Positions 34,073 through 43,946 are shown, counted from the stretch's first letter. The stretch: DNA of 59,929 nt from Gammaproteobacteria bacterium (GCA_004796365.1 QZLE01000201.1:1-59929); one strand, 5' to 3'. Translations and numbers: made by a program. Notes: generated by a model from the sequence alone, not told the origin.

Positions 34073-37000
34073 ATGAAAACAATATTCAACCTATTGCTAA
34101 ATGCGAGTATTATAATATCTGCCTTAACGCAACATGCCTTTGCTGCATCCTGGAAAGATATTTCCATTGCCAATTATAACGTGTCAATATACGTACCAGA
34201 CTTATCTAAGGGCCGTTCAACCCTTAGACCTCTAATGATAAACCTTCACGGCTGTGAACAAACCAGCCAAGACCTTGTTGATTACGGAAACTGGGGGAAA
34301 TCAGCTGACAAACACAATATGATTGTCGCTATCCCGGACAATCACGGCGACTGTTATGGCTATGATCCATCTCCTATTCCAGGCATTGAGCTGGCGCATG
34401 AATCTATACTTAATGTAATCAATGAACTAATCGAAGACCCTGCTCTTTATATTGACACCAACCAGATCTACATAAGCGGCTTAGGCGCAGGCGGCACAGT
34501 AGCTATGGAAATGGGCTGCAGATATCCTTATCTAATCGCTGGGATGGGGATCGCCTCTGCCGCATCTGCAGGTTCCAACCAAGCACTTCTTCAATACCTT
34601 TCATCTTTTACTCCAACAATGTCTGCTGATGAAGTAGCTACAGCATGCCTTGACTTTGCAGTAGACAAGACTGAACACTTCGACACTCAAATTGTTTCCA
34701 TTGTTTCTGGCGGTGATGGCACCAACAGCGATGGCAAGATCCACTCCAAATGGTCAACTATTTCAGCAGATGCATTCGCAAGCGTATATGGAATGGAAAG
34801 TGTATCCGGCGTAACCAGAATAGATGGTAATTCGTATGATGGAATTGAAGCTTTAGCTGTCGATAATAGTGGAAGTACCAGAATTTCAAGAATATTTGTT
34901 CCAGATATGGGATATGCGTGGTCAGCTGGAGATATTGGTTCTGACTCATCATTTACCTATTATGAAGACAAAGATATTGATGAACATGGGATAAATTATC
35001 CTGAGTATCTAACTTCTTATTTACAAACCAATAATCTCAAAATAAACCAAAACGATGGTGGTTGGAGCAAACCTTTTATCGGCGAAAAAATATACATCAA
35101 TACCACAAATCCAGAATGTCACCGGGTTTTTGGTAGCGCATACGATTTCAATGGCGAAATACTCTCAGTCACAGTTACAATTAATGGCTCACAGTACGAG
35201 ACCAAACTAGATGAAACATCACTAAGATTTGATGTAAATGAGTGTCTGGCAATAAGTGAAACCACACCAGTTTATGCAACGGCAACAGATAATGATGGCG
35301 CTATACGATCATTCATTCCCCAAAAGACTTTTTTGACTAACCATGCCAATAGCGATGCCAGCATAATCTCTGTGCATGCAGAAAAAGACGAAGTCGGTTG
35401 TGTAACGCTATCTGGTATAGCATCCTCAAATAACTGGAGTCCACCTCAGATAGTAATAAATATTGAGGATAATTTATATGTTGCCGATGAGGTTATTCAA
35501 ACTGAAACTGGATTCGAGTTCAATTCCAAAATATGTCCGGTAAATATGTTTGAATTTATCCTGAATCATGGAACTGTTATTGCAATTGATCAAAGCCAGA
35601 TTGAAAGCCTGCCGTATACATTCGAAGTTGAGTCACAACACGGTAATAATACTAACGCAACAGTAGAGCTAAAAATTACAGAATTATACGAGAAAGGTGG
35701 ATGTATTATTGCTGAGTTATATACGTCTGTAGAAGCCACTCCTGAGGTATACCTACAAGAAAAACAGCAAGAATTAGAGTTTCTGGGCAGTAACCAGTTC
35801 TATAAATTCTACCACATGAACAGATGCGAGCTGGAAGAAGACACTTATACCATCTTTGCCAAAGCTTTAGATAACTATGGGAACACAGTTATTCAGACTG
35901 AAACAAAAAATATCCAGGTTAATGAAAGTAATGCTCTACCAACTGCTCATTTTTCTTTCAAAGTTTCCACATTAACTCCGCATAATACGATTTGCTTTGA
36001 GGCCAAAGGAATAGCAATTGATCCTGACGGAATGATCAATGCCATTTCAATGACTGCAATAGGACAGAGTCAACCAGCAACCTTCGAACAACTTAGCGAG
36101 CATGCTGTTCAATTCTCAGCTAAATCATGTTTTGAAGTCGATGCAGTAGCGCATTCATATGGCTACAGCTACGATATTTCTTTATTAGTTGAAGATAACA
36201 AAGGGGCTGTGGCTGAATATAATGACATTATCTTGCATGTTGACCCAGCATTTCCAAATTTAGCTCCAGTTATTACAGAACTAACAACAAAAACTGATGA
36301 AAATAACTGCATAAATATTGAAGGGATGGCTTCAGATGATGATGGAGTTGTAGCATTTGTTAGCGTTATTATTAACGATGAATCATTTGAGGCGGATGTT
36401 CAGCACTACCAATCAATATCTTATAAATACAGCTTTTCAAAATGCGGCTATATCCCTGGTGAATACAATATTGCTGTTGCAGCCTTTGATAATTATGGAG
36501 ACTCAAGTAACATACAAACAGATATCGTTACTGTTAAAGATATCGACACCGACAACGACGGCATAGGAAATCTTCAAGATCCTGATGATGATAATGATGG
36601 GGTTGACGATGAACACGACACCTTTCCGCTAAACAGAAATGAGTCAAAAGATACCGATCATGACGGCATTGGCAACAACGCAGATAACGATGATGATAAC
36701 GACGGTGTTCTAGATATTAATGACGATTTCCCACTAGATCCTTCGGAAACAACTGATACCGATAATGATGGCATCGGCAACAATGCAGACACTGACGACG
36801 ATGGTGATGGCGTTCTAGATTTTGATGATGCCTTCCCACTTGATCCTTATGAAACAACTGATACTGACAAAGACGGAATTGGCAACAATACCGATACTGA
36901 CGATGACGGTGACGGAGTCGCAGACTCTGAAGATGCATACCCACTTGACCCTAAAAAATCACAGCTTGAGCCAAAACCTGAGCCAAAACCTGAGCCAAAA

Positions 37001-37171
37001 CCTGAGCCAGAGCCAGAGCCAAAACCTGAGCCAGAGCCAGAGCCAGAGCCAGAGCCAGAGCCAGAACCTAAACCTGAGCCTCAAACCAGTGATGGAGGCG
37101 GGGGAGCCCCAAATGCATTCATACTTCTTTTTTGCCTACTATCCCTGTTAATAACTAAAAGAAAACACTAA
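34073..37171 (+). CDS. Secreted, surface-anchored PHB-depolymerase-family (LpqC-like) protein with degenerate active site; Ig-like domains, TSP3 repeats, PE linker, GlyGly-CTERM
   Basis: Signal peptide ...AFA; oxyanion motif LHGC; GLGAGG in place of GLSAGG; MGYAW in place of MGHAW; DxDxDG repeats; GGGG followed by TM helix and KRKH. Confidence 0.8.
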   Translation: MKTIFNLLLNASIIISALTQHAFAASWKDISIANYNVSIYVPDLSKGRSTLRPLMINLHGCEQTSQDLVDYGNWGKSADKHNMIVAIPDNHGDCYGYDPSPIPGIELAHESILNVINELIEDPALYIDTNQIYISGLGAGGTVAMEMGCRYPYLIAGMGIASAASAGSNQALLQYLSSFTPTMSADEVATACLDFAVDKTEHFDTQIVSIVSGGDGTNSDGKIHSKWSTISADAFASVYGMESVSGVTRIDGNSYDGIEALAVDNSGSTRISRIFVPDMGYAWSAGDIGSDSSFTYYEDKDIDEHGINYPEYLTSYLQTNNLKINQNDGGWSKPFIGEKIYINTTNPECHRVFGSAYDFNGEILSVTVTINGSQYETKLDETSLRFDVNECLAISETTPVYATATDNDGAIRSFIPQKTFLTNHANSDASIISVHAEKDEVGCVTLSGIASSNNWSPPQIVINIEDNLYVADEVIQTETGFEFNSKICPVNMFEFILNHGTVIAIDQSQIESLPYTFEVESQHGNNTNATVELKITELYEKGGCIIAELYTSVEATPEVYLQEKQQELEFLGSNQFYKFYHMNRCELEEDTYTIFAKALDNYGNTVIQTETKNIQVNESNALPTAHFSFKVSTLTPHNTICFEAKGIAIDPDGMINAISMTAIGQSQPATFEQLSEHAVQFSAKSCFEVDAVAHSYGYSYDISLLVEDNKGAVAEYNDIILHVDPAFPNLAPVITELTTKTDENNCINIEGMASDDDGVVAFVSVIINDESFEADVQHYQSISYKYSFSKCGYIPGEYNIAVAAFDNYGDSSNIQTDIVTVKDIDTDNDGIGNLQDPDDDNDGVDDEHDTFPLNRNESKDTDHDGIGNNADNDDDNDGVLDINDDFPLDPSETTDTDNDGIGNNADTDDDGDGVLDFDDAFPLDPYETTDTDKDGIGNNTDTDDDGDGVADSEDAYPLDPKKSQLEPKPEPKPEPKPEPEPEPKPEPEPEPEPEPEPEPKPEPQTSDGGGGAPNAFILLFCLLSLLITKRKH
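36539..36960 (+). repeat. Thrombospondin type 3-like Ca-binding repeats, four units of about 33 aa (99 bp)
   Basis: Repeated DTDxDGIGNNADxDDDxDGVxDxxDxFPLDPxE. Confidence 0.9.
36968..37081 (+). repeat. Hexamer-based tandem repeat (GAGCCA / AAACCT) encoding a Pro-Glu/Pro-Lys stalk
   Basis: GAGCCAAAACCT and GAGCCA arrays read directly; translates to EPKPEPKPEPKPEPEPEP... Confidence 0.95.
37094..37171 (+). other. GlyGly-CTERM sorting signal (rhombosortase substrate)
   Basis: GGGGA, then hydrophobic FILLFCLLSLLI, then basic TKRKH and stop. Confidence 0.8.
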
Positions 37172-43700: not shown

Positions 43701-43946
43701 GTCAGAGCATACGATCACGCTGAAAACGTAACTGATTCTTCTGAGTTCACAGTAGTATGGGAAGAACAAGCTTCATGCTTCACTGCTGCGAACAGCGACC
43801 ACATTAATGCTGGACGTGCAGAGCTGAGATATAACATTCTGGCTTATGCTATCGGTTCTGGCGACTATCTTGGAATGAGCGGGGATACTACATCACTGGA
43901 AGAAACATCTGACGATGTTTGGACCAAGGTTACAAGCTGTAACTAA
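40800..43946 (+). CDS. Secreted HExxH metallopeptidase-like protein with choice-of-anchor-X-like motif, two DUF5011-type Ig domains, three PHB-SBD-like modules and two further Ig-like domains
   Basis: Signal peptide; LKDDGTGADRIAGDSIYT; VIHEITHQW (41694-41708) followed by GGGHW; C-terminal half homologous to that of the S8 protease. Confidence 0.8.
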   Translation: MRRSSFAKKFSLAASFVLSTFNYSHSFAYELPENTLKWEVIPSAIRADGNDSFVIEVYSPQTVSTIQLNKMPTDINDGDYVKPKSGYFFTSIALKDDGTGADRIAGDSIYTAGPFVYDTSKAFPVDGFEGVEGIFNDAIGDLQVTFTDNQYTYSSNGIFVRVGLVRDDIENVETTELSDNIQASPYVINMVDDNYASERRMRKMYEYSSHQAGLDQTSELYSVLEDDFDQILIFSTTTLNDISQSPKTSIKGMHYNVRNDIEGIGLNIYDSTASYGSNGILQGISYFSHGRLDSDLVIHEITHQWEAFLDSPIEGVEITDGGGHWNSFVNWHSYYDWVENVDGTFTKKCRYSEGWRNPLDKKFLKYVMGYSYYTDITEDLRVVDRNDSAGDFMCDKTITKTIHNFTMEDIIAVNGIRTPGPENAQRDFKAAVVFSTANRKFNATEMTFASIYAQNIGTIVGDALFGSTWTTALPAFPDTTPPVITLNGAQEINVILDSEFVDPGAVAIDNVDGNISGQIITVGDVDTTTTGEYTITYNVSDSSGNAAEEVTRTVIVSEEPLCDEFTATNLEHENAGRAYSETKTEGQTCWGTFCYGGTEVTTWYASGSDENLGTNGSASVTLHEETQGVWKTGVCPGPDVTAPVITIAGDNPMTVFQSSNFTDPGATAEDNIDGDVTADIVVTGYVDTNTIGSYELVYTVSDAAGNEASEIRTVNVVAIPACQEFTSTLSSHESAGRAYSITETTGQTCWGTFCYGGTTTTTWYAEGSDENLGTNGSATVTLRTSANGYITGNCPTDPQPPVIESYEVAEHTYLRVVVTGTASDPDGDIDRVVLGLGAATGIYCEGTTSFTCTLDWDAYGFEVGAEVSLSVSAWDSREAVSNIETFLLTRPEKQDSVPPVISNIQQTREGTVEIVTVDITDVDGDLAGAFLYRIDDIGRVDCYNTSGSQYRCEMQLQGASYATMTWKVRAYDHAENVTDSSEFTVVWEEQASCFTAANSDHINAGRAELRYNILAYAIGSGDYLGMSGDTTSLEETSDDVWTKVTSCN

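Follow-up and report, generated by a model that had tools for sequence, protein, structure and literature searches.

Putative secreted proteases with modules homologous to the substrate-binding domain of PHB depolymerases in a probably variable slot of a gammaproteobacterial genome

A contig of 59,929 nucleotides from a Gammaproteobacteria bacterium (GCA_004796365.1, QZLE01000201.1:1-59929), referred to here as the window, contains at positions 34073-43946 three open reading frames (ORFs) of the same (+) direction, each of which starts with a signal-peptide-like N-terminus. Gene 1 encodes a protein of the polyhydroxybutyrate (PHB) depolymerase family in which catalytic residues are replaced, gene 2 an S8 serine protease and gene 3 a putative HExxH metalloprotease; genes 2 and 3 carry three copies each of a module that, by its sequence, is homologous to the substrate-binding domain (SBD) of PHB depolymerases. 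Our analysis suggests that secreted proteases probably occupy a variable slot at this locus and that they belong to a modular secretome which extends through the lineage and is probably controlled by CRP. A preliminary description of the same DNA had read the three genes as one dedicated system, a 'dismembered' PHB depolymerase. Its observations were reproduced, namely the three co-oriented genes for secreted proteins, the altered esterase domain with an anchor-like tail and without a binding module in gene 1, the three modules on each of the two other genes and the perfect CRP core site ahead of gene 3, while its interpretation as a unit was not.

Each module in genes 2 and 3 lies between Cys residues and contains an HxxAGRA motif. 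Each gene has two long copies, which are internal and carry a CWGTFCYGG insert, and one short copy of 57-60 amino acids (aa) with invariant bounding Cys at the extreme C-terminus. The module profile detected the copies of both genes with E-values from 1e-15 to 1e-41. Searches with isolated modules against Pfam and NCBIfam (E ≤ 10) and against the PDB sequences returned nothing meaningful, and a word-indexed homology search with the short module found a single protein. The model PF06850, which had been put forward for the SBD, describes a different domain (PMC2666664), and the module lies outside the models of both Pfam and NCBIfam. When one module of the genome was compared with plasmid records by tblastn, weak matches were obtained, regularly located in the final ~57 aa of proteins annotated as PHB-depolymerase-family esterases, from Pseudoalteromonas, Kitasatospora and the archaeon Halocatena. 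A profile built from 27 modules of the source genome (A1) aligned over its full length with the C-terminal domain of two of these esterases, P0155 and P0156 (46.3 and 39.0 bits), and these two, as well as the module-bearing esterases P0060, P0069, P0073 and P0087 from an exhaustive search, pass the NF050058 model of type-1 extracellular depolymerases (e_dPHAscl_type1). Since A1 matches the C-termini of NF050058-passing esterases over its full length, the modules are, on this profile evidence, homologues of the PHB-depolymerase SBD, and the resemblance noted in the preliminary description can be stated as homology.

The literature regards the SBD of PHB depolymerases as an accessory of polyester hydrolases, and to our knowledge no structure of it has been solved. 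For the short module a fold was predicted with a pLDDT of 93.7. A Foldseek comparison of this model with the PDB gave a best E-value of 1.8 and TM scores below 0.4, which fits the small number of three-dimensional depolymerase structures in the PDB (PMC11893044). Adsorption by the SBD does not depend on catalysis and extends to polymers that the enzyme does not hydrolyse (PMC11893044). While the modules of genes 2 and 3 correspond to the entire C-terminal domain of the depolymerases, they differ from it in being attached to peptidases and in being present in three copies, two of which have a 17-residue Cys-containing insert. The strict pattern C-x-G-x-x-C-x-G-G of this insert was found in only one (P0024) of 18 esterase-bearing representatives; P0086 has a near-identical insert that the strict pattern missed. 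At the level of its published description, a marine polyamide-4 (nylon-4) hydrolase with a beta-lactamase fold, composed of SBD, linker and catalytic domain (Saito et al. 2023, as summarised in PMC11509169), provides a precedent for such a layout in an enzyme degrading a polymer other than PHB. The partners of the present module are mainly peptidases, beta-lactamase-family domains being found on 7 of 73 representatives and once in the genome.

The module is not confined to the locus. In the source genome (G000; 2.8 Mb, 83% complete) it is present on 28 ORFs. Among the 22 that were scanned, eight had an S8 domain, two a C25 domain and one each an S9, M6, beta-lactamase-like or Esterase_PHB domain, and 15 had immunoglobulin-like (Ig-like) domains of PF16403. 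The five genomes of the family contain 56, 30, 66, 46 and 22 copies, and the module is absent from 55 of the 56 other families of the class. Since the module-bearing ORFs are mostly peptidases and the copy numbers extend through the family, the attachment of this module to proteases is a rule of the lineage and not a property of this locus. In 1.84 billion representative proteins the profile had 721 matches at E ≤ 1e-3, and in the 73 representatives scanned its partners include Esterase_PHB (11), beta-lactamase (7), S9 (6) and S8 (5) domains as well as M12-like, M64, C1 and SASA domains. A few proteins (P0126, P0091, P0106) consist almost wholly of two to four tandem modules, for example four copies in 304 aa, and have no catalytic domain.

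Within the 150 best representatives the module stands at the extreme C-terminus in 139, directly behind the signal peptide in 33 and internally in many. The preference for the C-terminus would also be expected if the short copy were an address label that retains proteins at the cell's own envelope or vesicles or directs their secretion and sorting, the internal copies being spacers. The family-specific expansion, the occurrence on many unrelated catalytic domains and the finding that no protein of G000 combines a C-terminal module with a GlyGly-CTERM tail are consistent with such a label. However, the SBDs of canonical depolymerases are C-terminal as well (PMC11893044, PMC2666664), so that the position can be explained by inheritance, and the copies behind the signal peptide and in the interior weigh against such a label. 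A dedicated sorting enzyme or secretion system co-occurring with the module was not found, although no search aimed at one was made. We consider a role as address label unlikely and favour one in adsorption.

To place the locus in its lineage, we compared it with three genus relatives, G001, G002 (GCA_033852075.1) and G003, and with the family-level relative G004. The flanks of the slot are conserved in G001-G003. The left one comprises a UDG-family gene together with the genes of a GGDEF-EAL response regulator and of two hybrid histidine kinases, the right one genes for 165 and 2087 aa. Between these flanks, G001 has two tandem S8 genes, G003 three S8 genes, and G002 an S8 gene and a C13 peptidase on a gene 3-type chassis (L103:12744-16055). 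The S8 arrays of G003 (L105, G003:C2:606-9765) and G001 (L106, G001:C24) are 55-58% identical to gene 2. No homologue of gene 1 was detected in the slot of G001, G002 or G003, and the best gene 1-like gene of G002 lies elsewhere, among unrelated neighbours. An orthologue of gene 3 (77% identity) is present on another contig of G002, beside a 436-aa module protein, the three loci of G002 thus lying on three contigs; gene 3 had no match in G001, G003 or G004, and gene 2 none in G004. Gene 1 is an insertion unique to the source genome at this slot. As the spacer upstream of gene 2 retains a motif that it has in common with the UDG-S8 spacer of the relatives, our results suggest that gene 2 kept its own promoter when gene 1 was inserted ahead of it.

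These results bear directly on the idea of a single system, in which the anchored, inactive depolymerase would dock the cell on polyhydroxyalkanoate (PHA) granules or similar particles and the SBD-bearing proteases would strip protein, for example phasins, from them. The three genes are adjacent and co-oriented, the first two without a terminator between them. The modules are SBD homologues in a family that makes PHA and has two strong PhaC-type synthases (PhaC_N) per genome, and gene 1 retains the oxyanion motif and the Asp of the catalytic triad, so that a binding cleft may persist. However, the trio is present in none of the three genus relatives, where the slot holds proteases only, and the orthologues of the Ser-less esterase and of gene 3 lie apart, the former without protease neighbours. 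In the source genome itself, gene 3 is separated from the other two by a terminator and has a CRP-type promoter region of its own. Absence of linkage in relatives had been named beforehand as evidence that would speak against a dedicated system, and because of this synteny result we regard the idea as highly improbable; the three genes are not a conserved unit, and the specific claim of a three-gene system fails and is not carried forward. The depolymerase has not been dismembered either. An ORF on another contig (G000:C62:5525-9208; 1228 aa), the sole esterase paralogue of G000 with the module, reaches 258.8 bits with NF050058, keeps GLSAG and the catalytic His and has two long modules and one short one; judged by these features it is an intact type-1 extracellular PHB depolymerase. 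It persists alongside the modules on the other ORFs.

Gene 2 matched Peptidase_S8 (PF00082) with 61.5 bits at a cut-off of 21.8, and its triad motifs DVEGG, HGTAV and GTSSAAP are present. With its signal peptide, S8 domain and C-terminal beta-sandwich accessory domains (PF16403) it resembles marine multidomain subtilases. These carry Ig-like, PKD or PPC accessories, to which gene 2 adds PHB-SBD-type modules; the modules are outside all Pfam and NCBIfam models and have a predicted fold without a PDB match. In gene 3, H299, E300, H303 and H324 are invariant in 8 sequences, and the head (aa 1-487, 40800-42260) has 5 length-compatible homologues among 5.8 billion clusters. Searches of aa 1-487 against Pfam, NCBIfam and the PDB sequences gave no match, and a model of the head, of mediocre quality (pLDDT 64.9), led in Foldseek to Ig-like parts only. 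Since neither sequence nor fold returned a match, it is the invariant HExxH motif and His that mark gene 3 as a putative metalloprotease of a rare HExxH family. The head also contains a DDGTG.D..AGD motif that resembles the choice-of-anchor X motif. Over 495 aa, the chassis of gene 2 is 62.6% identical to that of gene 3, which, together with the C13 enzyme on this chassis in the slot of G002, points to an exchange of catalytic heads on one chassis.

The second element of the proposed secretome is its regulation. The perfect CRP core TGTGATATAGTTCACA ahead of gene 3 is the only one in the window, against 0.02 expected. The genome encodes a protein that scored 354.9 bits with the CRP equivalog NF008732 (cut-off 266), a cut-off that was passed by one of 14 control genomes (presumably E. 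coli). Genome-wide, 20 perfect TGTGA-N6-TCACA sites were counted, compared with about 3 expected. In five module-bearing genes the 400 bp ahead of the start contain perfect sites, six in total, and one more coincides in part with the presumed start of a gene for an M6 module protein. As module-bearing genes account for 28 of the 2275 ORFs of at least 150 aa, a rough binomial estimate gives ~0.25 such sites by chance. The target genes that were scanned encode S8 and M6 enzymes; examples of perfect sites before module-bearing genes of these types are those at G000:C100:28364, C111:22509, C130:27776/27943/36247 and C64:6997. In the relatives, too, sites with no or one mismatch precede protease genes of the syntenic slot, and TGTGATAGAGTTTGCA occupies the matching place ahead of the G002 orthologue of gene 3. 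Given the CRP equivalog and the enrichment of perfect sites before module-bearing genes, control of the module-bearing secretome by CRP is a reasonable inference, and the CRP-type control suggested in the preliminary description appears plausible. Sites with up to two mismatches numbered 26 in the window, with 31 expected, and thus showed no excess over chance; the weak site ATTGACACAGTTCACA upstream of gene 1 was for this reason given no weight.

Gene 1 differs from its neighbours in both domain content and history. Its product comprises a signal peptide, an esterase-like domain of the PHB depolymerase family (about aa 25-335), Ig-like repeats, thrombospondin type-3 repeats (aa 806-965), a Pro-Glu/Pro-Lys linker and a GlyGly-CTERM-like tail. 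The domain passes PF10503 (28.4 bits, cut-off 23) and stays below the cut-offs of NF050058 (96.9 vs 150 bits) and TIGR01840 (87.3 vs 107.85 bits). Examples of extracellular depolymerases with a type-1 catalytic domain are those of Pseudoalteromonas shioyasakiensis (WP_254907770) and Kitasatospora (WP_331742605) and the enzyme of Lihuaxuella thermophila (PDB 8DAJ). In alignments with 8DAJ, with the paralogues of the same genome and with the Pseudoalteromonas depolymerase, GLGAG of gene 1 stands opposite GLSAG or GLSSG, replacing the lipase-box Ser by Gly, and MGYAW stands opposite MGHAW or LDHSW, replacing the catalytic His by Tyr. The triad Asp is retained, as is an LHGC oxyanion motif (aa 58-61) ahead of GLGAG (aa 136-140). 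Since these depolymerases need a triad of Ser, His and Asp, in which GxSxG supplies the Ser (PMC2666664, PMC11893044), and gene 1 has Gly and Tyr in place of Ser and His, the domain is very probably inactive as a serine esterase.

The Pseudoalteromonas depolymerase is 25% identical to gene 1 over 493 aa, belongs to the same fold family and has the same order of signal peptide, esterase, Ig-like and thrombospondin type-3 regions. Gene 1 is unlike it in that the terminal SBD is replaced by the anchor-like tail, and unlike extracellular short-chain-length (scl) PHA depolymerases in general in lacking Ser and His and in its scores. The module profile did not match gene 1, and no C-terminal SBD follows the linker. 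By eye, its C-terminus, ...SDGGGGAPNAFILLFCLLSLLITKRKH, resembles GlyGly-CTERM, with a Gly-rich motif, a hydrophobic helix and a basic end, and the genome encodes the rhombosortase TIGR03902 (145 bits, cut-off 84). Scanned alone, the tail matched no NCBIfam model, and its processing is a prediction. Tails of this type are present on eight ORFs of the genome, and gene 1 is probably surface-anchored. A search of the genome contigs with the whole of gene 1 was discarded, as all 80 loci matched the thrombospondin-type repeats only (aa ~800-965) and none had the module.

In G000 the esterase domain occurs on 15 ORFs, with GLSxG and His kept in most. A maximum-likelihood tree placed gene 1 in a clade with C168 and with the orthologous pair C2 and G002:C55 (support 99/99 for the clade and 100/99 for the pair). 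The lipase box is intact in C168, which has both Ser and His, and reads GFGAG in C2 and GLGAG in G002:C55; both orthologues are Ser-less and have GlyGly-CTERM-like tails. As the Ser to Gly state is conserved in this pair across species, Ser-less members appear to be maintained, which argues for a non-catalytic role of the anchored form, such as binding or adhesion. This agrees with the adhesin role that had been proposed for a dead, anchored gene 1. Gene 1 could on the other hand be a decaying, functionless duplicate close to a pseudogene, whose position beside the proteases is accidental. It has the longest branch of its clade, has lost the His in addition to the Ser, and is without an orthologue at its site in the relatives. 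Decay would hardly leave 1032 codons uninterrupted and the signal peptide, the repeats and the sorting tail in place, and it would not account for the same Ser-less state in orthologues of two species. We consider it very unlikely. A PHB-depolymerase pseudoenzyme did not turn up in the searchable literature, which makes the conserved Ser-less anchored subfamily a candidate pseudoenzyme adhesin.

In the explanation that we favour, the family has massively expanded the PHB-depolymerase-type SBD as a standard appendage of secreted hydrolases, which are typically built of a signal peptide, a catalytic domain and Ig-like domains that alternate with long modules, a short module forming the extreme C-terminus. 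Genes 2 and 3 represent unrelated catalytic heads, S8 and the rare HExxH type, on a duplicated chassis. Under carbon limitation, cyclic AMP (cAMP)-CRP would raise the expression of these multidomain enzymes, and through their modules they would become attached to insoluble and probably hydrophobic surfaces of polymers or particles, in the way depolymerases are attached by the homologous SBD. Proteolysis would follow on the particle itself, where the enzymes would stay, and less enzyme would be lost by diffusion. Gene 1 would be a separate, recently inserted paralogue from the Ser-less, rhombosortase-anchored pseudo-esterase subfamily, with a promoter-like site of its own and no demonstrated link to the proteases; it is most likely a non-catalytic surface binding protein or adhesin and may bind ester-type polymers.

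Several points weigh against this explanation. Adsorption by the diverged modules, including the long CWGTFCYGG variant, is predicted from homology, and CRP control is argued from sequence motifs. The near-constant position of the module at the extreme C-terminus would equally suit a role in sorting or surface retention. The long branch of gene 1 could reflect relaxed constraint, and with a gap of 147 bp and no terminator detected in it, genes 1 and 2 may be co-transcribed in the source genome. The synteny comparison covers four relatives, and the trio may be conserved in rare cases.

The SBD, known as an accessory of polyester hydrolases, is here the dominant accessory module of a whole secretome, with 22-66 copies per 3-Mb genome, mostly on proteases. 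If the modules bind polyesters or other hydrophobic particles, they illustrate a way in which a marine-type bacterium prevents the loss of costly exoenzymes from particles. They would then also represent a natural toolbox of adsorption tags relevant to the protease-based depolymerization of the polyester poly(lactic acid), in which adsorption limits activity (PMC11178483). A more far-reaching combination of these elements is offered tentatively and is considered rather unlikely: the SBD would have become a universal particle anchor for CRP-controlled peptidases (S8, C25, C13, S9, M6 and the new HExxH type), a disulfide-stapled long variant would have evolved, the modules would take proteases to PHA granules or hydrophobic cell debris for the harvest of protein or would have gained a new ligand, and Ser-less anchored esterase domains would be the matching surface receptors.

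The features of the locus are listed in Table 1. Gene 2 probably starts at the ATG, and a strong terminator hairpin separates it from gene 3.

Table 1. Positions of genes, domains, modules and putative regulatory elements of the locus, counted from the first nucleotide of the window
Feature	Position	Strand	Basis or remark
Gene 1, 1032 aa	34073-37171	+	Secreted, esterase-like domain, no binding module
Gene 1 codon Gly138 in GLGAG, position of the nucleophile Ser of the GxSxG lipase box	34484-34486	+	Alignments with 8DAJ, own paralogues and P0155
Gene 1 codon Tyr281 in MGYAW, position of the catalytic His	34913-34915	+	Alignments with 8DAJ, own paralogues and P0155
Gene 1 GlyGly-CTERM-like sorting tail (GGGG, hydrophobic helix, KRKH)	37082-37168	+	Sequence pattern
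Gene 2, secreted S8 serine protease with Ig-like/module chassis	37319-40414	+	Alternative GTG start at 37307
Gene 2 S8 domain	about 38087-38842	+	Peptidase_S8 match
Gene 2 module 1, long form, CWGTFCYGG insert	38933-39163	+	Profile, E 2.2e-39
Gene 2 module 2, long form	39428-39655	+	Profile, E 1.8e-38
Gene 2 module 3, short form, extreme C-terminus	40241-40411	+	Profile, 107 bits
Intrinsic-terminator-like hairpin and U-run in the gap between genes 2 and 3	40503-40537	+	-15.3 kcal/mol, z = -3.75
Perfect CRP core palindrome TGTGATATAGTTCACA	40632-40647	.	~160 bp upstream of the gene 3 ATG
Gene 3, secreted, N-terminal HExxH domain (aa 29-480) and C-terminal chassis	40800-43946	+	Invariant HExxH and His324
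Gene 3 HExxH codons	41694-41708	+	HEITH, aa 299-303
Gene 3 module 1, long form	42480-42707	+	Profile, E 1e-41
Gene 3 module 2, long form	42960-43187	+	Profile, E 2.5e-38
Gene 3 module 3, short form, extreme C-terminus	43773-43943	+	Profile, 105.6 bits

Some further observations were made in the source genome and its relatives. The PHB-depolymerase-family esterase domain is itself expanded, with 15-23 matches per genus relative beside the 15 ORFs of G000 (e.g. G000:C138:20779-22884, C78, C73, C9, C85, C19 and C68); some copies are in tandem or two per ORF, and almost none of the other families of the class has the domain. ORFs for alpha/beta-hydrolases of ~400 aa with a weak PhaC_N match adjoin module proteins at G000:C10:1070-1348 and G002:C18:30513-30776. 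In the window, the left flank of the slot (23254-33126, minus strand) encodes the two large hybrid histidine kinases, with GAF and Hpt domains, and the GGDEF-EAL response regulator. The 2087-aa ORF of the right flank (44541-50804, minus strand) had no Pfam match at E ≤ 1e-3 and is conserved with 55-59% identity in G001 and G002.

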